Shown here: piece by piece, positions 51,613 to 64,000 of the stretch
Layout: each line of letters opens with the position of its first letter
How positions within the stretch are numbered: position 1 is the stretch's first letter
Assembly (NCBI GenBank): GCA_963926355.1
Contig: CAWUWW010000003.1
Location: forward strand, 41,264 to 105,263
Length of the DNA: 64,000 bases
DNA from: an uncultured SAR86 cluster bacterium
Lineage (GTDB): Bacteria > Pseudomonadota > Gammaproteobacteria > Magnimaribacterales > D2472
Reading direction: 5' to 3'
Made by a program: the position numbers and the translations under genes
Notes under the pieces: model-generated
Database searches by the model: none
Told to the model about the DNA's origin: nothing
What the model saw: only the letters and a program-made list of their open reading frames with translations

Positions 51613-54239
<2,627 letters not shown>

Positions 54240-55316
54240 TTATCTTAATTGTTCCACGTGGAACTTTTTAAACTCTCTAAAACTATCCTCTATTTTACTA
54301 CTAAAATGATCATCTATACAGGAAAAAATAATTTGATTATTTAACGTATTGAGAAGCTCTAAAAAGATATCAAATGTATTACTATCAAGCTCAGATTTAA
54401 TGTCATCTATTATTAAAGTAGCGTTTATATTATGTTGTTTTCTAAGAACCTCATGCTGAGAACAGCACCATAGTATTGAAAATAATTTTTGCTCTCCTCT
54501 TGAAAGAATTTGTCTCGCATCTGCGTCTCCAATAAGAAATCTAATGTCTGCCTTGTGTGGACCTTCTGTTGTTGATCTTCTTTTGAGATCTTTAAACCTG
54601 TTATTGGTCATGGTAGTTAAAAGGTCTGATGACTTATCCCAGCCTGGAAAAAAATCAATCACGATGTCATTTAAAAATTTTATGGATGCTGAATGATTAA
54701 TTTCTTTAATAAGAATCTTTAATTCATTTAGGGTTGCTTGGAAAAAGATTTCTCTTTTAAGGTCGAGCTTTACGCCCTCCTCTGAAATTTTTATATCCCA
54801 AGGCTCAATATTTGAGATAGAACCAGATTTAATAAGGCTGTTTCTTTGCTTCAAGCACCGATAATAAGCAAACCAGTTTTCAAGAAAGCTTTTATCAGAA
54901 ACAAAAAGAGCTCTATCTAAGATTTTTCTCCTAAAGTCAGGTGAGGCATCGGCAAATGAAAATGTATTGTTATGTATTGCTGTTGATGGAAACTCTCTTA
55001 TAAGCCTACTAGAGGTTGCCTTGGTATTATTTATTAGGACTGAGATAGATTTGTTTTTTTCTTTCGTTATGGAGAGGATGTATCCTTTATCAACATCGTA
55101 GCTTCTAAGAGAGAAAGAATCTTCGCCCTGAGCAATTAAAGATTGAAGATTTGAGCTTTTAAAAGACTTACCACTTGAGCAAAGATGAATTGCCTCAAGT
55201 AAAGAGGTTTTACCAGAGCCGTTTTTACCGTAAAAAAAATTAATGCCAGGTGATAGGTTTATTTTTATTGATTTAAAACACCTAAAATTATTAAGTGTTA
55301 ATTCTTTAAAGGCCAT
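54240..55316 (-). CDS. recF: DNA replication/repair protein RecF
   Basis: NFR, GKNGSGKTS.LEA, GPH.AD, LSRGEQK, IDD..SELD. Confidence 0.94.
   Translation of the reverse strand: MAFKELTLNNFRCFKSIKINLSPGINFFYGKNGSGKTSLLEAIHLCSSGKSFKSSNLQSLIAQGEDSFSLRSYDVDKGYILSITKEKNKSISVLINNTKATSSRLIREFPSTAIHNNTFSFADASPDFRRKILDRALFVSDKSFLENWFAYYRCLKQRNSLIKSGSISNIEPWDIKISEEGVKLDLKREIFFQATLNELKILIKEINHSASIKFLNDIVIDFFPGWDKSSDLLTTMTNNRFKDLKRRSTTEGPHKADIRFLIGDADARQILSRGEQKLFSILWCCSQHEVLRKQHNINATLIIDDIKSELDSNTFDIFLELLNTLNNQIIFSCIDDHFSSKIEDSFREFKKFHVEQLR
54250..54265. other. parS centromere-like site inside the 3' end of recF
   Basis: TGTTCCACGTGGAACT: perfect 14-bp palindromic core matching the parS consensus. Confidence 0.88.
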
Positions 55317-55318
55317 TC

Positions 55319-56422
55319 TTAGATAAGCAAAGGCATTACGACATACTTAAAGCAATCAGAAGCAGGATTTGTTATTAAACAGCTTTTATCTGAGCCAAAA
55401 AAATGTATCTCAACATTATCATTTTCAATTGATGAAATTATTTCTTGAAGATAATTAACGTTAAAAGCTATGTCCATAGCCTCACCAGAATAGACGCATT
55501 CAACACTTTCTTCTGCCTGTTCTTTTTCAGGATTGTTGGCTGAAATATTAATTTTATTATCTGAAGTTATTATTCTTATTCCTCTATATTTTTCACTTGA
55601 GAGCACGCTAACTCTGCTTAGGCTTTCTGCTAGACTTTTTTTATTAATTGTTAGTGTTGAGCTTTCTCCGGACGGGATGACTTGCTCATAATCTGGGAAC
55701 TTGCCCTCTATTAACTTGCTTGAAAAAGTTGTTCCTGAAACATTAACTGTTATTGAGTTGGCGCCCAGGTGGAGAAGAATATTTTCTTTTTCGTCTCCGA
55801 CAAGTTTTCCTATTTCATTGATAGATTTTCTTGGGACAATCCCTGTTATTTGCTCTGTGACACCTTCATTAAGGCCCAGTGAAGCAAGCGCAAGGCGATG
55901 GGCGTCTGTTGCAACACTAGTAATCTGCGTATCCTCTATTGAAAGATATAAACCATTTAGGTAATGCCTCCAATCTTGGTTACCCATAGCAAATGCGGTC
56001 TTGCTAATTAAAGATTTTAGATTTTGGGGAGTTATGTTTATTGCGCTAGATTTCTCTTCTTTTTCAAAGACTGGGAAGTCTTCACTTGGAAGTGTTGCTA
56101 GGTTATATTTACCTGAGTCTGTTTCAATTCTTAGGTTGTCTCCATCTAAGAAAAAATGGACTTCTGACATATCTGAAAAAAGCCTACACAGCTCACTAAG
56201 TTTTTTTGCAGGTGCTGTAACCCTTCCACCACTTTTAAAGTTTGATATTGTTGATATTGTTGATATCTCTGATTCCAGATCGGTCGCTGTAAGTCTTAGG
56301 GATGACTCATCTACTTCAAATAAAACATTTGCTAGAATTGGGAGGGTTTGTCTTTTTTCAACAACTCCAAGGGTTGAGGTCAGGGATTTTACAATCTCCT
56401 CTTTTGATATATAAAAATCCAT
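55319..56422 (-). CDS. dnaN: DNA polymerase III beta clamp
   Basis: ATDLE, ATDAHRL, LIEGKFPDY, VVMP. Confidence 0.97.
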   Translation of the reverse strand: MDFYISKEEIVKSLTSTLGVVEKRQTLPILANVLFEVDESSLRLTATDLESEISTISTISNFKSGGRVTAPAKKLSELCRLFSDMSEVHFFLDGDNLRIETDSGKYNLATLPSEDFPVFEKEEKSSAINITPQNLKSLISKTAFAMGNQDWRHYLNGLYLSIEDTQITSVATDAHRLALASLGLNEGVTEQITGIVPRKSINEIGKLVGDEKENILLHLGANSITVNVSGTTFSSKLIEGKFPDYEQVIPSGESSTLTINKKSLAESLSRVSVLSSEKYRGIRIITSDNKINISANNPEKEQAEESVECVYSGEAMDIAFNVNYLQEIISSIENDNVEIHFFGSDKSCLITNPASDCFKYVVMPLLI

Positions 56423-57720: not shown

Positions 57721-57768
57721 TCCATTCTCCTCATTTATGAATACCTAGTCTATTAAAAAACTAACAAG

Positions 57769-57817
57769 ATATCTACAGGATAACACCATGAATTTTCTGT
57801 GGATAACTTGTTGATAT
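57769..57817. promoter_or_regulatory. DnaA-box cluster in the dnaA-rpmH intergenic region
   Basis: Perfect TGTGGATAA 57798-806; degenerate TGTTGATAT 57809-817 and ATATCTACA 57769-777. Confidence 0.8.
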
Positions 57818-57902
57818 AAATTATTTGTTTGTTTTTGCTAAATTATGTGAAATGTATAAATTATTGGGCTATAATGCCCCACTATTTTTTGGACAGTATA
57901 TT

Positions 57903-58037
57903 ATGAAAAGAACATTTCAACCTAGCACTCTTAAGAGAAACAGAACTCATGGCTTTAGAGCTAGAATGGCTACCAAGGCTGGTAGAGCTATATTGTCTAG
58001 CAGAAGAAAAAAAGGGCGTAAGGCTTTAACTGTATAG
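57903..58037 (+). CDS. rpmH: 50S ribosomal protein L34
   Basis: [22 protein letters not shown]; true start ATG 57903. Confidence 0.98.
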
Positions 58038-58040
58038 AAC

Positions 58041-58328
58041 TTGGTGCTATCAAGGCTTCCAAAACACTTCCATTCGTCTAAAAATTGTAGAATTTTCTTT
58101 TTAGAAGACGATAAAGAATCATTAAGAATATCCATATCAAAGAAAAATTTTAAGTTAGCGGTTTCTAGAAATAAAATTAAAAGACGTATCAAAGAAATAT
58201 TTAGGATTTATAATCTAAAGGTTGAACAGGGGTGTTTTCTTGTTTTTGTTTATCCTCCTTTTTCTAAATTAAAATACTCAGAAGCTTCTGTTGAAATGGT
58301 TAACGCTGTAAAATCTCATAACTTGTAA
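58041..58328 (+). CDS. rnpA: ribonuclease P protein component (shortened)
   Basis: ISISKK..K.AVSRNKIKRRIKE RNR-like motif; synteny. Confidence 0.85.
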   Translation: MVLSRLPKHFHSSKNCRIFFLEDDKESLRISISKKNFKLAVSRNKIKRRIKEIFRIYNLKVEQGCFLVFVYPPFSKLKYSEASVEMVNAVKSHNL

Positions 58329-58342
58329 CAAAACCCTATCAA

Positions 58343-59887
58343 ATGAATATCAGAAAAATTTATATTGGCTTAATTGTATTTTTATTAATGGGTCTGTTTT
58401 ATGCATGGACGTCTGAGACCAGAGCCCTTTCAACAGCAACGCATATGTCTGAGGTTGAGTATGAAAAGTCCCTACCAACTGTTTCTGATGATGGTAATTA
58501 TATAAGTATAGAGAATGATCTTTTGAAAATAAGAGTGGCTGTTAAGACTGGGGCAATAGTAGAGGCTAGATTAAAAAAATATAAGGTTGAGAATAGCGAC
58601 AGCGCATTGGGCTCGAGGGTTTTTGGATCTGATGATTCTAGTTTGTTTAAGTATTATTTTAAAAGTGGTTTCACGGGTCAAAATTTAAACTATGAATTAG
58701 ATTCATACTCTGACAATTTTGTAATTCTTCTTGATAAAGAAGTTGGAATAAGAAAAAAAATATCATTTCTTCCTGAGACATATGAACTATCTGTTACGGA
58801 CTCATCTATAAATGGGGTTAATGGCAAGGCCTTTGCATCACTATATCGAACAGGTGGAAGATCATTAGATTTAAAAACAAATATGGCTGACGGTGGTTTT
58901 ATGAATAGCAGTTCATATGAAGGTGTTGCTATTAGCACTGAGAAAGATGCATATGAAACTACCAGGCTAAGGTCTTTAGATGAGCCTATTTCTGAACTTT
59001 CAAGGTCAGGTTGGATAGCCTTTATAGAAAAATATTTTTTTGCCGCACTGTTGGGGTCAGAGGGTGTTATATATAATTATATTGCTCAACCGGCAAATGC
59101 GGGTATTTATAGCATGGGTTATACCGTTGAAAAACCTGAAACGCAAAACCTTGTTTATGAGCACACGCATAGACTTTTTATTGGCCCTAAGATTAGAAAA
59201 GATCTTGAAACCAGGGCTGAAAACTTAGAGCTATCAATAGATATGGGTTGGTTCTGGTTTATCTCACAGCCAATGGTTTTAATTTTAGATTTAATTAATG
59301 GAATTGTTGGTAGTTGGGGCCTTTCAATTGTTATTTTTACAATCCTTTTAAAGCTCCTGCTGTGGCCTGTCACTGCTAAAGGTTATGCCTCTATGGCTGG
59401 TATGAGAAAAGTGGCACCAGAGATGAAGGAGCTCCAAGAAAGATATAAAAACGATAGACAGAAGCTCGGAACAGAGACGATGGCTTTATATAAAAAACAT
59501 AATGCAAACCCAGTGGGTGGCTGCCTGCCAATGCTTGCTCAGATGCCTTTTTTTATAGGCTTCTTCTTTGCATTAAGGGAAATGGTGGAGCTGAGGCACG
59601 CATCTCTTGGTTTTTGGCTTACCGATCTTTCAGTACCGGACCCGCTTTTCATACTGCCTATACTTTTTGGAATGGTGATGGTTCTTACGCAAAGACTTAA
59701 CCCTCAACCAGCAATGCAAGATCAAACCCAGGCTCAGGTAATAAAGTATATGCCTGTAATTTTTTCTGGTTTCTTTTTTGTTATGCCTTCTGCGCTCGCC
59801 CTTTACTCGGTCATTAATAGTGGGGTTTCCTTAATTCAACAAAGGCTTGTTTATAAAAAACATGGTGCTAATGTTGATGGCTCATAG
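58343..59887 (+). CDS. yidC: membrane protein insertase YidC
   Basis: D.GWFWFI, NPVGGCLP...QMP, W.TDLS.PDP. Confidence 0.96.
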   Translation: MNIRKIYIGLIVFLLMGLFYAWTSETRALSTATHMSEVEYEKSLPTVSDDGNYISIENDLLKIRVAVKTGAIVEARLKKYKVENSDSALGSRVFGSDDSSLFKYYFKSGFTGQNLNYELDSYSDNFVILLDKEVGIRKKISFLPETYELSVTDSSINGVNGKAFASLYRTGGRSLDLKTNMADGGFMNSSSYEGVAISTEKDAYETTRLRSLDEPISELSRSGWIAFIEKYFFAALLGSEGVIYNYIAQPANAGIYSMGYTVEKPETQNLVYEHTHRLFIGPKIRKDLETRAENLELSIDMGWFWFISQPMVLILDLINGIVGSWGLSIVIFTILLKLLLWPVTAKGYASMAGMRKVAPEMKELQERYKNDRQKLGTETMALYKKHNANPVGGCLPMLAQMPFFIGFFFALREMVELRHASLGFWLTDLSVPDPLFILPILFGMVMVLTQRLNPQPAMQDQTQAQVIKYMPVIFSGFFFVMPSALALYSVINSGVSLIQQRLVYKKHGANVDGS

Positions 59888-59896
59888 TTTTAATTT

Positions 59897-61207
59897 ATGT
59901 CTGTAGTTTTTGCATTAGCTACTCCGGCTGCAAAGTCTGCTATTTGTGTTTTTAGGGTTTCGGGAAAAGGTTGTTTAGAATCCTTAAATGATCTTATTGA
60001 AAAACCCTTAGAAGGTCATAGGGTTTTTGAGGTTAGGCCTGTTTATTTTAATAAAAGACTTTTAGACACTGTCGGGGTGATTTCTTTTAAAGGGCCTGAA
60101 AGTTATACAGGGGAGGATTCTTTTGAGGTTTATGCTCATGGGGGCTTGGGTGTTATGTCTTTGTTTGTAGATCTTTTTAAAAGCCTTGGTTTTGATGAGG
60201 CGCCTCCGGGAGAGTTTACTAAAAGGGCTTTTTTGAATGGTAAGTTAAGCTTAAATGAGGCTGAGGCTGTTGTTGATGTTATAGATAGCTCAGCGGTTGA
60301 GGATGTCTACCTGTCGTCCAGGTCTCTTTCTGGGGATTTTTCAAAAGCTGTTATTGCTTTTGCAGAAGAGATAGATTTCATAAGAGTGAGGGTTGAGGGT
60401 GAAATAGATTTTTCTGATGAAGGCCAAGAATTTTTAGATGGTTCTCTTTTTAATGACTTGGTTAATTTAATTACCAGGTTTGATCTTTTTACAGGGGGTT
60501 GTCTTAATAAAAAAAACCGGTTGGTTAAAAATAAGGTCCTTTTTGTTGGGCCTGTTAATTCAGGGAAGTCGTCTGTTTTTAATAGGCTTTTGGGTTTTGA
60601 GAGGGCTTTGGTTTCTAACGTCCCGGGAACAACAAGGGATTTGATTGAGTCTGAGGTTTTTTATAATGATTTAAGTTTTTCTATTTTTGACTCTGCTGGG
60701 TTAAGAGATACAGATGATCTAATTGAGGCAAGGGGTATTGCCCTTGCTGTGGATGAGATTAAAAACGTTGATGTTGTTGTTGGTGTTTTTGAAAAAAAAG
60801 ATAGTGTTGTTATGGATTATTTTGAAAAAATTTCAAAAAGTAAGATATATATTAGTTTATTAAATAAAGTTGACTTGGGTTTGGTTGATTCTTCTGGTTT
60901 TGATTGTTGTCTTTCCGCAAAAACAGGTGAGGGCTTTGAGCTCTTTAAGGAAAGGCTTAAAGGGGTTTTTGCTGAAGAGAATAATAGTGATTCTACTTTT
61001 CTAGTGAGACAGAGGCATATAAATCTTTTTGAGGAGTCTGTTTTAAACCTAAGGGCGGCGTTGGACAAATTAAGAAAGGCGGAGGTGTTGGAGCTTGCTG
61101 CAGAAGATTTAAAAATAGCTAGGTCTTGTTTGGATGAGGTTGTTGGTTTTAAAAGTTCCGATGATTTGTTGGGTGATATTTTTAGTACTTTTTGTATTGG
61201 TAAGTAG
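59897..61207 (+). CDS. mnmE: tRNA modification GTPase MnmE
   Basis: SYTGED, GEFTKRAFLNGK, GKSS, PGTTRD, D.AG.R, FCIGK. Confidence 0.96.
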   Translation: MSVVFALATPAAKSAICVFRVSGKGCLESLNDLIEKPLEGHRVFEVRPVYFNKRLLDTVGVISFKGPESYTGEDSFEVYAHGGLGVMSLFVDLFKSLGFDEAPPGEFTKRAFLNGKLSLNEAEAVVDVIDSSAVEDVYLSSRSLSGDFSKAVIAFAEEIDFIRVRVEGEIDFSDEGQEFLDGSLFNDLVNLITRFDLFTGGCLNKKNRLVKNKVLFVGPVNSGKSSVFNRLLGFERALVSNVPGTTRDLIESEVFYNDLSFSIFDSAGLRDTDDLIEARGIALAVDEIKNVDVVVGVFEKKDSVVMDYFEKISKSKIYISLLNKVDLGLVDSSGFDCCLSAKTGEGFELFKERLKGVFAEENNSDSTFLVRQRHINLFEESVLNLRAALDKLRKAEVLELAAEDLKIARSCLDEVVGFKSSDDLLGDIFSTFCIGK

Positions 61208-61426
61208 TTAACCTGTTGATAATCTGTGGTGCTTTTTACCCCCCTTTTTTTATCAACAGCTTGTTCGCAGTTTAGGTGTTGGTGTGTGGGTATGCTTAAA
61301 CATGCTTTATACATCTCTGAGATGGTTGTTTTTTATAGGTTTTATAGAGTTGTTAACAGAAAACAGCCTCTCTAATAGAAATAACAATAAGTATATAATA
61401 TAGATATTATTGGTTTTAATAAGTAT
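61208..61426. other. putative oriC (DnaA-box variants plus AT-rich unwinding region)
   Basis: TGTTGATAA 61214-22 and TTATCAACA 61250-58 as an inverted pair, weaker boxes near 61285 and 61350, AT-rich tract about 61372-61426; lies upstream of mnmG (gidA). Confidence 0.65.
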
Positions 61427-63274
61427 ATGGAAAATTATGATGTGGTTGTTGTGGGCGGGGGCCATGCTGGGGTTGAGGCAGCTCACGCTGTTTTTCGCTC
61501 AGGCTTAAAATGCGCCCTGGTAACCTTTGATGCAAAAAAAATTGGTCAAATGTCATGCAACCCTGCAATAGGAGGATTAGGAAAGTCGCATATTGTTAGA
61601 GAGATCGACGCAATGGGTGGAATAATGCCTATAGCCACAGACATGTCAGGCATACAATACAGAACACTAAACACAAGAAAGGGATATGCCGTTCAAGCCC
61701 TAAGGGTTCAATGTGACAGAGAGCTTTATAAAAAAGGAATACAAAAACTATTAAAAGAAACAAATATAGATATTTTTGAAGACGAGGTTATTGATGTCGT
61801 TCTAGAGAAAAATTCTGTAAAAGGGGTTGTAACCAAAACAGGTAAAATTTTAGCCAACAAGACAATCTTAACAACAGGCACCTTTTTAAACGGCGTTATG
61901 TATACAGGCCAAGAGTCCGTAAAAGGAGGGCGCGTAGGAGATAGCTCGTCAATACCTCTGTCAAAAAAACTTTACGATTTAAAACTGCCAATGGGAAGGC
62001 TGAAAACAGGAACGCCTGCAAGAATTAAACTAACAAGCCTCAACACCTCTGTTATGGAAGAGCAGCCGGGCGACACACCAACCCCTTGGATGTCTTTAAC
62101 AGGAAGGGTTAAAAAACATCAAAAACAACTCTCTTGCTTTATAACAAGAACGGACGCCAACACCCATAAAATAATTGAAGAAAACATTCACTTATCAGCA
62201 ATGTATTCAGGAAACATAACAGGCATAGGCCCAAGGTACTGCCCCTCAATAGAAGACAAAATATTTAAATTTAAAGATAAAGACAGCCACCAAATATTCA
62301 TAGAACCAGAGGGAATAAGTAAAGACCTTGTTTACCCAAACGGCATATCAACAAGCCTGCCAAAAGAGATTCAGAAAGAATTTATTTTATCCATAAGCGG
62401 CATGGAAGACTCAATAATAGAAGAGTATGGGTACGCCGTAGAGTACGACTTTATTGACCCAAGGTCCTTACATCAAACACTCGAAACTCATTTTTTTAAA
62501 GACTTTTATTTAGCTGGACAAATAAACGGAACAACCGGGTATGAAGAGGCCGCGGCTCAAGGCTTAATGGCTGGAGTTAACGCAGCCCTTTCTGTAAAAA
62601 AAGAAGAAGAGTTTGTTCTGGACAGGAGCGAGGCCTATATAGGGGTCATGATAGACGACTTAACAACCCACGGAATAACAGAGCCGTATAGGATGTTTAC
62701 AAGCAGAGCTGAGTACAGACTTCTTTTATCTCAAAGCAACGCCGAGCAAAGACTTTTAAGAAAAGCCCATAAAGTTAACCTTGTGGAAGATCAAAGGCTG
62801 ACAACTTTCAACAAGGAAGAAGAGGAATACAAAGAATTTATTATTAACACGCTAGAAAAAACAAAAGTAAAAGAGTTTTTAAATAACAAAAAAGAGGTAA
62901 TAAAACTTAACGAGAAAAAAAGCATAGCAACAATCCTCACAAGACCAGATATCGAAATAGATACAATACTTAAAACCACAAAAGAAAACAAAAAACACTT
63001 AAAAAGAGCGGCTGTTGAAATAAAGTATAAGGGCTATATTGAAAAGCAACTTAGAGAGATACATAAAAACAAAAAACAAAACCACAAAAAAATACCTAAA
63101 GACTTTAACTATAAAAACCTAAGCGGACTATCAAACGAGGTGGTTGAAAAATTACTAAAAGCAAAACCAGAAACAATAGGTTCTGCTTCCAAAATAGAAG
63201 GGGTAACACCAGCAGCAATAAACTTAATTCTAGTAATGTTAAAAAAAGAAGAGATGCAAAAAACACATGCATAA
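61427..63274 (+). CDS. mnmG: tRNA uridine 5-carboxymethylaminomethyl modification enzyme
   Basis: GGGHAG.EA, MSCNPAIGG, GPRYCPSIEDK, AGQINGTTGYEEAAAQG. Confidence 0.98.
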   Translation: MENYDVVVVGGGHAGVEAAHAVFRSGLKCALVTFDAKKIGQMSCNPAIGGLGKSHIVREIDAMGGIMPIATDMSGIQYRTLNTRKGYAVQALRVQCDRELYKKGIQKLLKETNIDIFEDEVIDVVLEKNSVKGVVTKTGKILANKTILTTGTFLNGVMYTGQESVKGGRVGDSSSIPLSKKLYDLKLPMGRLKTGTPARIKLTSLNTSVMEEQPGDTPTPWMSLTGRVKKHQKQLSCFITRTDANTHKIIEENIHLSAMYSGNITGIGPRYCPSIEDKIFKFKDKDSHQIFIEPEGISKDLVYPNGISTSLPKEIQKEFILSISGMEDSIIEEYGYAVEYDFIDPRSLHQTLETHFFKDFYLAGQINGTTGYEEAAAQGLMAGVNAALSVKKEEEFVLDRSEAYIGVMIDDLTTHGITEPYRMFTSRAEYRLLLSQSNAEQRLLRKAHKVNLVEDQRLTTFNKEEEEYKEFIINTLEKTKVKEFLNNKKEVIKLNEKKSIATILTRPDIEIDTILKTTKENKKHLKRAAVEIKYKGYIEKQLREIHKNKKQNHKKIPKDFNYKNLSGLSNEVVEKLLKAKPETIGSASKIEGVTPAAINLILVMLKKEEMQKTHA

Positions 63275-63890
63275 AGAACTAGAAGAGAAAATAGAAAACA
63301 GTCTCCCAAAACAATCTAAAGAAGAGGTTGGTAAAATAAAAGAGTTTGTTGTAGATGCAATAGAGTTCAATAAATCCCACAATATATTTGTGAGGGAGTT
63401 GGCAGAAGAGGTTTTTGAAAAAGATATATTAGACTGCATGCCGCTCATAGAAAAAATAAAAGACAATGAAAAAATACTAGACATGGGTTCTGGCGGAGGC
63501 TTTCCAGGACTGTTAATTGCCATTCTTCGACCTAACTGCGAGATTCATTTGTTAGAAAAAAGCCAAAAAAAATGCTACTTTCTAAATAAAACAATTCACA
63601 AACTAGGGTTGTTAAATGCAAAAACACTAAACATAAACATCAAACCAAATAACAAAATAGGAGCCTATAACCTAATAACATCTAGGGCCTTTTCTTCAAC
63701 AGAGAATACATTAAACCTTTCTAAAAAAAACCTTGAGATAGGGGGAAGATATATCCTTTTAAAAGGCAGAGAGGAGAAGATAACAGAAGAACTAGAATCC
63801 TTAGACACAAATAAATATAAATATGAAATAATCAAAATACAAAATACAAAACATGAAAGGCATCTAGTCGAGATAAAAATTAATGAATAA
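63267..63890 (+). CDS. rsmG: 16S rRNA m7G527 methyltransferase
   Basis: [16 protein letters not shown]; follows mnmG. Confidence 0.93.
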
Positions 63891-64000
63891 AATACTAGCA
63901 ATAGCCAACCAAAAAGGCGGAGTGGGTAAAACCACAACAGCGGTAAATTTAGCAGCAAGTCTTGCTGGAACAAAAAGAAAGGTTTTACTTATTGACCTTG
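63883..64000 (+). CDS. parA: chromosome partitioning ATPase ParA (partial, runs off window end)
   Basis: Manual translation [39 protein letters not shown]. Confidence 0.95.

Follow-up and report, generated by a model that had tools for sequence, protein, structure and literature searches.

Why do two neighbouring genes that are read in the same direction show opposite strand biases in base composition, and why does the change fall beside a probable replication origin? The question is raised by a stretch of 64,000 nucleotides (the window; G000:C3:41264-105263) from an uncultured SAR86 cluster bacterium, whose genome (G000) comprises 1.25 Mb in 28 contigs, with 35% G+C and 89% completeness. Near the right end of the window, mnmE and mnmG lie on the + strand on either side of a short spacer that probably contains oriC, mnmE being rich in G and T and mnmG rich in A. 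The explanation that we consider very probable is a strand-asymmetric pressure that acts on the DNA itself, is centred on the origin and is still operating. A mechanism in which the leading-strand template stays single stranded because the replisome is uncoupled is possible, and we put it forward tentatively.

The base composition over the whole gene is A.255, C.107, G.261, T.378 for mnmE and A.407, C.180, G.198, T.215 for mnmG, with a mean for the window of A.318, C.171, G.179, T.331. The keto skew over all sites in 200-nt windows drops from +0.06 at 61450-61649 to -0.13 at 61500-61699, with the sign change at about 61,550-61,600; at third codon positions, zero is crossed within the opening 300 nt of mnmG, whose initial ~100 nt stay G/T-rich because they encode a glycine/valine-rich dinucleotide-binding motif. 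The third-position keto index of the coding strand, (G+T-A-C)/n (GT3), has a mean of +0.063 (sd 0.075) in this genome. In the set of 1001 open reading frames (ORFs) with a length of 150 aa or more, mnmE ranks first (+0.47, z +5.4), and mnmG (-0.31), parA (-0.30) and rsmG (-0.29) are the three lowest, with z of -4.7 to -4.9; parB is fifth lowest (-0.20). The coding-strand AT3 skew, calculated for the 1152 ORFs of at least 100 aa in the genome (mean -0.07, sd 0.09), likewise has its minimum in mnmE (-0.45) and its maximum in mnmG (+0.37). A weaker halo reaches left as far as gyrB, which together with dnaN is among the 12 lowest coding GT3 values of the 1001, and right as far as glmU and glmS, both low at -0.13. 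No contig of the genome shows a top-strand replication effect above 0.05. Isolated GT3 outliers without a mirror partner occur elsewhere in G000, one low (C7:18186-18656, -0.24) and four high (C6:76456-76980, C1:234374-235135, C5:19516-20106 and C9:44463-45293; +0.31 to +0.35). The initial annotation had assigned mnmE, mnmG and rsmG to the + strand, and both the identities and the strand are confirmed; its two hand counts (T30 G17 A8 C5 at 60121-60180, A35 C11 T9 G5 at 62941-63000) are exact on recount. The sharp switch that it placed at 61500-61620 agrees with the 200-nt keto windows, and the bias does weaken leftward from mnmE as it had suggested (yidC, +0.21). Its description of mnmG and rsmG as very A/C-rich holds for A; the C excess is modest, the right arm being chiefly A-rich and T-poor.

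The same pattern is found throughout the genus. The comparison set covered 20 kb around mnmG in 12 same-genus genomes (MnmG 72-89% identical) and in 8 genomes of three sister families. Gene order and flip are kept in 12/12 of the other same-genus loci, and the sign changes within the first 300 nt of mnmG in 13/13 genus loci. Residuals were calculated as top-strand keto3, corrected for gene orientation and averaged over the 13 genus loci (the 12 and the window locus). They are positive in the left halo (gyrB +0.10, recF +0.15, dnaN +0.15 and dnaA +0.15, the minimum for dnaA being +0.10), increase through yidC (+0.18) to mnmE (+0.30), and are negative for mnmG (-0.31), rsmG (-0.38), parA (-0.31) and parB (-0.27). 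The short rnpA has a residual of +0.03 (sd 0.10 over the 13 loci). Beyond parB, atpI and atpB are at about 0 and atpF to atpG at -0.18 to -0.09; beyond roughly 20-40 kb, the residuals stay within about +/-0.03. The corresponding coding-strand GT3 values in the genus are -0.21 to -0.32 for mnmG to parB, -0.04 to -0.08 for dnaA to gyrB, +0.24 for yidC and +0.36 for mnmE. Left of the element the bias is independent of gene orientation: yidC and mnmE, which lie on the + strand, and dnaA to gyrB, which lie on the - strand, are all G/T-enriched on the top strand. In uncorrected 300-nt bins, top-strand keto3 reaches about +0.4 between -1.5 and -0.9 kb. The opening 300-nt bin of mnmG has +0.03, and values of -0.39 and -0.46 are found between +1.2 and +1.8 kb; from about +4.2 kb on (atpI, atpB), the sign is positive again. 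The amplitude of the profile is close to zero in the middle and largest at about +/-1.2-1.5 kb.

Polarity was judged in G019, a same-genus genome that consists of a single contig (1,297,870 bp) and was analysed over its whole sequence. The mnmE-mnmG spacer is located at 293.3 kb and its antipode at 942 kb; the maxima of cumulative GC skew (949.8 kb) and keto skew (952.7 kb) lie near the antipode. If replication is taken to start at the spacer, 781 of the 1172 genes more than 25 kb away are co-oriented with it. Gene co-orientation and the antipodal skew maximum together provide the polarity reference. By this reference, forks leaving the element have leading-strand sequence that is A/C-rich on both sides, contrary to the classical rule, by which G (in Proteobacteria also T) is in excess on the leading strand. 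Several syntenic loci from other orders have the usual polarity at this place; in one of them (L087), the leading-strand genes on both sides are G/T-rich. Away from the element, G019 has no replication skew to speak of: GT3 is 0.071 for leading and 0.074 for lagging genes (difference -0.002 +/- 0.005), and the two groups show no difference in GC3 or AT3 skew. A scan for antisymmetry (4 kb each side) gives a unique outlier of +0.498 at 293,250 (z +8.9). The second-ranked site, at 459 kb (z -4.3), was rejected as a sparse-data artefact beside a gap free of ORFs; that gap (G019:C1:456976-462066), probably the rRNA operon, comprises 5 kb without an ORF of at least 100 aa. As ordinary forks leave no skew, the local process differs in kind from normal fork passage. 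The initial annotation had proposed a local, origin-linked anomaly with inverted polarity and had named a genome-wide skew of the same polarity and amplitude as the observation that would remove it; the genome-wide skew is absent and the local anomaly is borne out.

The spacer upstream of mnmG has parts that resemble those of an origin and were recognised by eye (Table 1). Two inverted box-like sites with the sequence TTATCAACA are followed by a third, which is TTGTTAACA in the window and TTATCAACA, TTACCCACA or TTATTAACA in relatives; these sites carry 1-2 mismatches. A run of NAN triplets resembling a DnaA-trio and an AT-rich block follow, and mnmG, the gene on the AT-rich side, is transcribed away from the element. 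Within the AT-rich block, 30 nt (TAAGTATATAATATAGATATTATTGGTTTT) are invariant in 13/13 genus loci, where flanking four-fold sites are near saturation. The block also contains TATAAT, and it may serve as unwinding element and mnmG promoter at once. The order of box, spacer, NAN repeats and AT-rich DNA recurs by eye in the 8 loci of other families and in L126, a locus from a metagenome-assembled gammaproteobacterium; the length of the spacer is 214-226 bp in 12/13 genus loci. These features suggest that the element is the active chromosomal origin of the lineage. The spacer between dnaA and rpmH, which shows high conservation within the genus, has a perfect DnaA box (TTATCCACA) that is likewise conserved, together with a second box-like site, and may be the promoter region of dnaA and rpmH, involved in dnaA autoregulation, or a second origin of the oriC1 type. 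The residual profile is continuous across this spacer, and the bias is therefore centred on the element upstream of mnmG.

The bias is seen at more than one kind of site. Four-fold degenerate sites have an amplitude equal to or above that of third positions, and the mnmE-mnmG spacer is itself G/T-rich on the top strand (+0.23 over all sites). At codon positions 1+2, the keto skew of mnmE is +0.143, as compared to a mean of +0.024 and a maximum of +0.091 in 13 orthologues from the class; that of mnmG is -0.115, as compared to a mean of -0.027 and a minimum of -0.085 in 37 orthologues. These data support a pressure that acts on DNA and reaches the protein sequence. Four-fold sites, spacer DNA and amino-acid shifts all back the mutational footprint that the initial annotation had proposed.

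It is also being regenerated. The genus loci fall into six deep lineages with 24-31% nucleotide divergence. At four-fold codons shared between lineages, the third base is identical at a frequency of 0.41-0.46, as compared to 0.31-0.39 expected if each lineage drew independently from its own composition, so that about 10-15% of the ancestral four-fold signal remains; the bias is nevertheless found in every lineage. With sites so close to saturation, the bias cannot be a relic.

The spectrum was read from four-fold sites of the 13 genomes. Background sites have A.358, C.129, G.074, T.438, the left arm A.204, C.117, G.128, T.552, and the right arm A.418, C.189, G.087, T.307. If the affected strand is taken as the top strand left of the spacer and the bottom strand right of it, A changes by -0.15, T by +0.11 and G by +0.05 in the left arm, and A by -0.13, T by +0.06 and G by +0.06 in the right arm, with C barely altered in either. 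The G/A ratio of this strand shifts about 3-fold in the left arm and about 2-fold in the right arm. The spectrum is a loss of A (A>G, A>T) and not cytosine deamination. Cytosine deamination is the fastest single-strand lesion and the one usually invoked for single-stranded DNA; in its simple form it is insufficient here, since loss of A, not of C, dominates. With L012 as outgroup, 630 substitutions could be polarised among L009-L011 (3.6-4.1% apart); the other groups in the genus are at least 13% divergent. The A>G direction agrees with the composition, and the ratio of top-strand A>G to T>C rates is 2.04 in the left halo (p 0.001), where it is confounded with gene orientation. Contigs from public sequencing runs offer about 100 variant places over 20 kb, which are unpolarisable and too few for a comparison of the arms.

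The distribution of the pattern follows the lineage. Both arms are found in family f2 (3 loci) at about half the amplitude; in families f3 and f4 (5 loci), a right arm of -0.16 to -0.23 is accompanied by the left halo. Both arms are strong in L126, whose MnmG is 60% identical. Relatives had been named in the initial annotation as a check, and they carry the flip in every same-genus locus and more weakly elsewhere in the order. The other orders of the class were represented by 40 loci, 13 of which have mnmE at most 10 kb upstream of mnmG; in these 13, the difference in GT3 between mnmE and mnmG is -0.22 to +0.07, that is, the contrast is absent, as compared to +0.50 to +0.78 in readable genus loci. 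Four Pelagibacter loci have the identical order mnmE-mnmG-rsmG-parA-parB and show no contrast (-0.09 to +0.01). The pattern therefore does not come from these genes, nor is it general to streamlined AT-rich marine genomes, and an extension to slow-growing streamlined bacteria, as first suggested, fails. It is specific to this lineage.

The sequence itself is also present in public sequencing runs. Of the 24 runs listed, 19 contain 0.90 or more of the words sampled from the central 10 kb. A contig of 1397 nt from run X4 covers window positions 60380-61776 and so leads from the last part of mnmE through the spacer into mnmG. Depth is present in 30/30 bins in all 4 runs that were mapped; all four consist of contigs with one flat depth value per contig. 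A chimera, which had been raised as a concern, is rejected by the synteny in 13 genomes and by the contig that bridges the spacer. In some of the relatives, several conserved genes are split into two or more ORFs; for example, in L006 (G019:C1:283218-303217), atpB appears as ORFs of 149 and 126 aa and atpA is in pieces, and in L008 (G011), gyrB is split into ORFs of 214 and 453 aa. The splitting of such conserved genes in G019 and G011 suggests frameshift errors of long-contig assemblies. The mnmG match in G008 has 8 in-frame stops.

Table 1. Genes and putative origin features in and next to the window (positions are those of the window)
Feature	Position	Strand	Remarks
gyrB	52314-54233	-	named from position and length only
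recF	54240-55316	-	Pfam
dnaN	55319-56422	-	Pfam
dnaA	56425-57720	-	Pfam
dnaA-rpmH spacer	57721-57902		182 bp; perfect DnaA box inside
Perfect DnaA box TTATCCACA	57798-57806	-	in dnaA-rpmH spacer; conserved in genus
Second box-like site and conserved promoter-like TATAAT	within 57721-57902		TATAAT before rpmH; both in dnaA-rpmH spacer
rpmH	57903-58037	+	from sequence; name from order and length; short, composition noisy
rnpA	58041-58328	+	from ORF list; name from order and length; short, composition noisy
yidC	58343-59887	+	Pfam
mnmE	59897-61207	+	Pfam
mnmE-mnmG spacer	61208-61426		219 bp; flip centre, probable oriC
Inverted box-like sites TTATCAACA	61214-61222; 61250-61258	-; +	in mnmE-mnmG spacer
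Box-like site TTGTTAACA	61350-61358		in mnmE-mnmG spacer
NAN-triplet, DnaA-trio-like run TAG-AAA-TAA-CAA-TAA			~12 nt past third box-like site
AT-rich block	61372-61417		ends 9 nt before mnmG ATG
mnmG	61427-63274	+	Pfam
rsmG	63267-63890	+	Pfam
parA	from 63883, past window end	+	name from order and length
parB, atp operon, glmU, glmS	next on contig, right of parA		names from order and length

What could produce such a profile? A value of zero at the centre and peaks further out fit a bubble in which both strands are open centrally and the asymmetry grows outward. This geometry would put at risk either the template of leading-strand synthesis to both sides or, if there is a break, the strands with 3' ends. 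We propose that the element upstream of mnmG, with its box-like sites, its DnaA-trio-like run and its AT-rich block, would be the chromosomal origin and that, in the first kilobases of replication, the replisome would be uncoupled, with helicase and lagging-strand priming running ahead of leading-strand synthesis. The leading-strand template (top strand on the left, bottom strand on the right) would then be single stranded and unprotected for far longer than elsewhere and would accumulate adenine damage (A>G, A>T), losing A and gaining G and T. The damage would become fixed because the lineage appears to lack MutS-type mismatch repair. The effect is greatest about 1-2 kb out, still marked at 4 kb and faded by roughly 15-20 kb.

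Gene content bears on this proposal, the absences resting on single-contig relatives as G000 is 89% complete. MutS_V was found in 0/41 genomes of the order (21 of them at least 90% complete, several single-contig), as compared to 11/14 well-known genomes used as control, and the whole order appears to be without MutS-type mismatch repair. RecC was found in 0/5 genomes (G000, G019, G026, G031 and G033; four of them single-contig), RecJ in 0/2 (G000 and the single-contig G019) and PDDEXK_1, the nuclease domain of the RecB/AddAB type, in 0/2 genus genomes; in the other three families, PDDEXK_1 occurs only in open frames of 255-292 aa. The known enzymes for resection of double-strand ends thus seem to be missing. 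SeqA was found in 0/1 genome. Uracil-DNA glycosylase (UDG), RNase HI, RecA and PriA are present in the lineage. The chi subunit of Pol III (PF04364), an accessory part of the replisome, has been lost patchily within the order, with 6/6 in f2, 5/5 in f3, 0/25 in f1 and 0/5 in f4. Overall, the gene content singles out no mechanism.

Several observations weigh against the proposal or against parts of it. Single-stranded DNA and uncoupling are deduced from composition, and the canonical scheme of initiation does not predict exposure of the leading template alone over kilobases. The spectrum, dominated by A, matches polymerase error no less well than damage. On the affected strand, T/C increases from 3.39 to 4.73 (1.4-fold) in the left arm and does not shift in the right arm, and the expected flip in C>T was not seen among the 630 polarised substitutions. 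In the same underpowered set, the ratio of top-strand A>G to T>C reaches significance in neither arm (left 1.45, right 0.60). The two arms can be uncoupled, since mnmE is not G/T-rich in f3 and f4 (residual -0.08, 4 loci), and loss of chi does not track the amplitude of the bias. As regards the origin, matches to the DnaA box are not enriched across the window (64 vs 86 expected), and the case for an origin therefore rests on conservation and architecture. Likewise, the element upstream of mnmG is preferred as firing origin over the dnaA-rpmH spacer, which lies at a distance of 3.5 kb, on grounds of its sequence architecture and of the symmetry in the bias.

The closest alternative keeps the bias at the origin and replaces damage with miscopying. 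An early state of the polymerase or replisome (for example, extended synthesis by Pol I, very short Okazaki fragments or a Pol III that is not yet coupled) would leave uncorrected A:T>G:C errors on the strand opposite to that of the mature fork. In favour of such errors, most of the change lies in A/G and A/T balance and C>T is slight. They would stay uncorrected in an order with MutS_V in 0/41 genomes, and the decay with distance resembles the gradient produced by the hand-over from Pol I to Pol III at plasmid origins of the ColE1 type. We nevertheless consider it unlikely: the mature fork leaves no bias, so that the errors of the early replisome would have to be divided between the strands in a very different way, and a halo of 15-20 kb is long for a polymerase hand-over. 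The same geometry would follow from a recurrent double-strand break at the origin with 5'-to-3' resection, where the 3'-ended strands stay single stranded before recombinational repair. This would give the exact polarity (top strand exposed on the left, bottom strand on the right) and a decay with resection length, and RecA is present. It is highly improbable, however, given RecC in 0/5 genomes, PDDEXK_1 in 0/2 of the genus and RecJ in 0/2, an effect that is essentially one-armed in the core of f3 and f4, and no apparent cause of a site-specific break. Exposure or miscopying is favoured over a break because the enzymes of the break model seem to be missing and two families are one-armed; break and resection, one of the causes listed in the initial annotation, is weakened since these enzymes were not found. 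Converging forks, another cause on that list, would meet at the mnmE-mnmG spacer after starting at the dnaA-rpmH spacer and at a site right of parB. The core would then have normal polarity, the signs of its arms becoming textbook, and the dnaA-rpmH spacer does have its perfect, conserved DnaA box; two origins about 5 kb apart are documented in Pseudomonas aeruginosa, as far as the available part of that preprint goes (Weigel 2025, bioRxiv 10.1101/2025.08.05.668638). The fit is poor and convergence is decidedly improbable: the sign does not reverse outside the supposed starts (dnaA-gyrB +0.10 to +0.15; atpF-atpG -0.09 to -0.18; glmU and glmS -0.13), normal forks are free of skew elsewhere and cannot yield +/-0.3, and the best origin architecture lies at the supposed meeting point.

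Selection on strand composition is improbable. An A/C-rich strand tracked by the helicase (the lagging template) and a G/T-rich excluded strand might tune unwinding, the density of priming sites or the binding of SSB and DnaA in very large populations. The long maintenance of the bias in all deep lineages, its presence in spacer and coding DNA alike and the very strong purifying selection on the central element are consistent with this. Selection would, however, have to act at nearly every synonymous site over at least 8 kb while distorting essential proteins; no oriented motif was identified, and the smooth decay with a long weak halo looks like a dose effect and not like a functional boundary. 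Asymmetry associated with transcription (damage to the non-template strand, R-loops) or operon codon usage is scarcely credible. The coding strands of yidC and mnmE are G/T-rich, as predicted for non-template damage, and the coding-strand baseline of the genome is slightly so (+0.06), but mnmG to parB and the opposite-strand dnaA to gyrB are reversed on the coding strand, and the orthologous operons in the 13 class loci and the 4 Pelagibacter loci show no contrast. As the bias tracks position and not transcription, damage to the non-template strand, sense R-loops and codon usage are ruled out. An artefact (an assembly chimera, blocks gained by horizontal transfer, or a recent inversion within a strongly skewed genome) can practically be dismissed. 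The abruptness of the switch is the one feature that suggests it; flip and gene order recur in 12/12 same-genus genomes and in L126, the X4 contig bridges the spacer with depth in all bins, and an inversion is excluded since there is no genome-wide skew to reveal.

Compared with known systems, the pattern resembles classical replication skew in being antisymmetric about the probable origin and in affecting both synonymous sites and, as known from strongly skewed genomes, amino-acid usage. It differs in that the sign is reversed in the lineage of the window, with an A/C-rich leading strand, and in its extent, with a core of about +/-4 kb and a halo of about +/-15-20 kb in place of a replichore-wide skew with a second switch at the terminus. 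Mutation clusters known from yeast and cancer are strand-coordinated and switch strand at a resected double-strand break; like the present bias, they damage the 3'-ended strand on each side and decay with distance. Those clusters, unlike an evolutionary equilibrium, are somatic or experimental, and the resection enzymes searched for (RecC, RecJ and PDDEXK_1) were not found in the genus. In vertebrate mitochondria, replication by strand displacement gives a skew graded by the time spent single stranded (PMC3269012). To judge from the accessible portion of that work, the likeness includes a G/T-rich strand graded by distance from the origin, a comparable amplitude at four-fold sites and a contribution of A>G; the present bias is two-sided and mirror-symmetric and decays within kilobases, and C>T, prominent in mitochondria, is weak or absent here. 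The likeness to the mitochondrial exposure gradient is functional only.

As for position, oriC of Escherichia coli and oriC2 of P. aeruginosa and the Halomonadaceae lie upstream of mnmG (gidA), and oriC1 between rpmH and dnaA; the spacer in the Halomonadaceae has a median length of 564 bp (Weigel 2025, bioRxiv 10.1101/2025.08.05.668638, in the part available). The putative origin described here would share with oriC of the E. coli/Vibrio type or oriC2 its position, the order of its parts (a box in R1 orientation, a short spacer, NAN repeats and AT-rich DNA) and a box-bearing rpmH-dnaA spacer; with 214-226 bp (12/13 loci), its spacer is shorter than that median. The same excerpt reports no reversed local skew at origins of the oriC2 type, and there is none in the 13 syntenic loci of the class. 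A bacterial origin with a locally reversed skew is not described in the portions of the literature that we consulted.

Strand skew is a standard computational marker of origins and is read as the footprint that a moving fork leaves on leading and lagging strands. In these genomes, the moving fork leaves no footprint, and the surroundings of the origin carry a strong one of opposite sign; programs that find origins from skew polarity would miss the origin or call it wrongly. Essential proteins encoded beside the origin (MnmE, MnmG, RsmG, ParA, ParB and YidC) are compositionally distorted and can mislead phylogenies. A broader proposal, which we regard as doubtful, is that the order starts replication through a prolonged, asymmetric intermediate on the kilobase scale that lies outside the textbook scheme of DnaA, DnaB and DnaG, either a helicase-first and lagging-first phase or a poised, partly unwound origin. 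Leading templates would then be left unprotected in every generation, the skew would be the footprint of this intermediate, and mature forks would be mutationally symmetric. The pattern separates a mutational process specific to initiation from one specific to elongation. The first seconds to minutes of replication thereby become testable from sequence and strand-specific mapping, in particular the identity of the exposed or badly copied strand and the distance involved.

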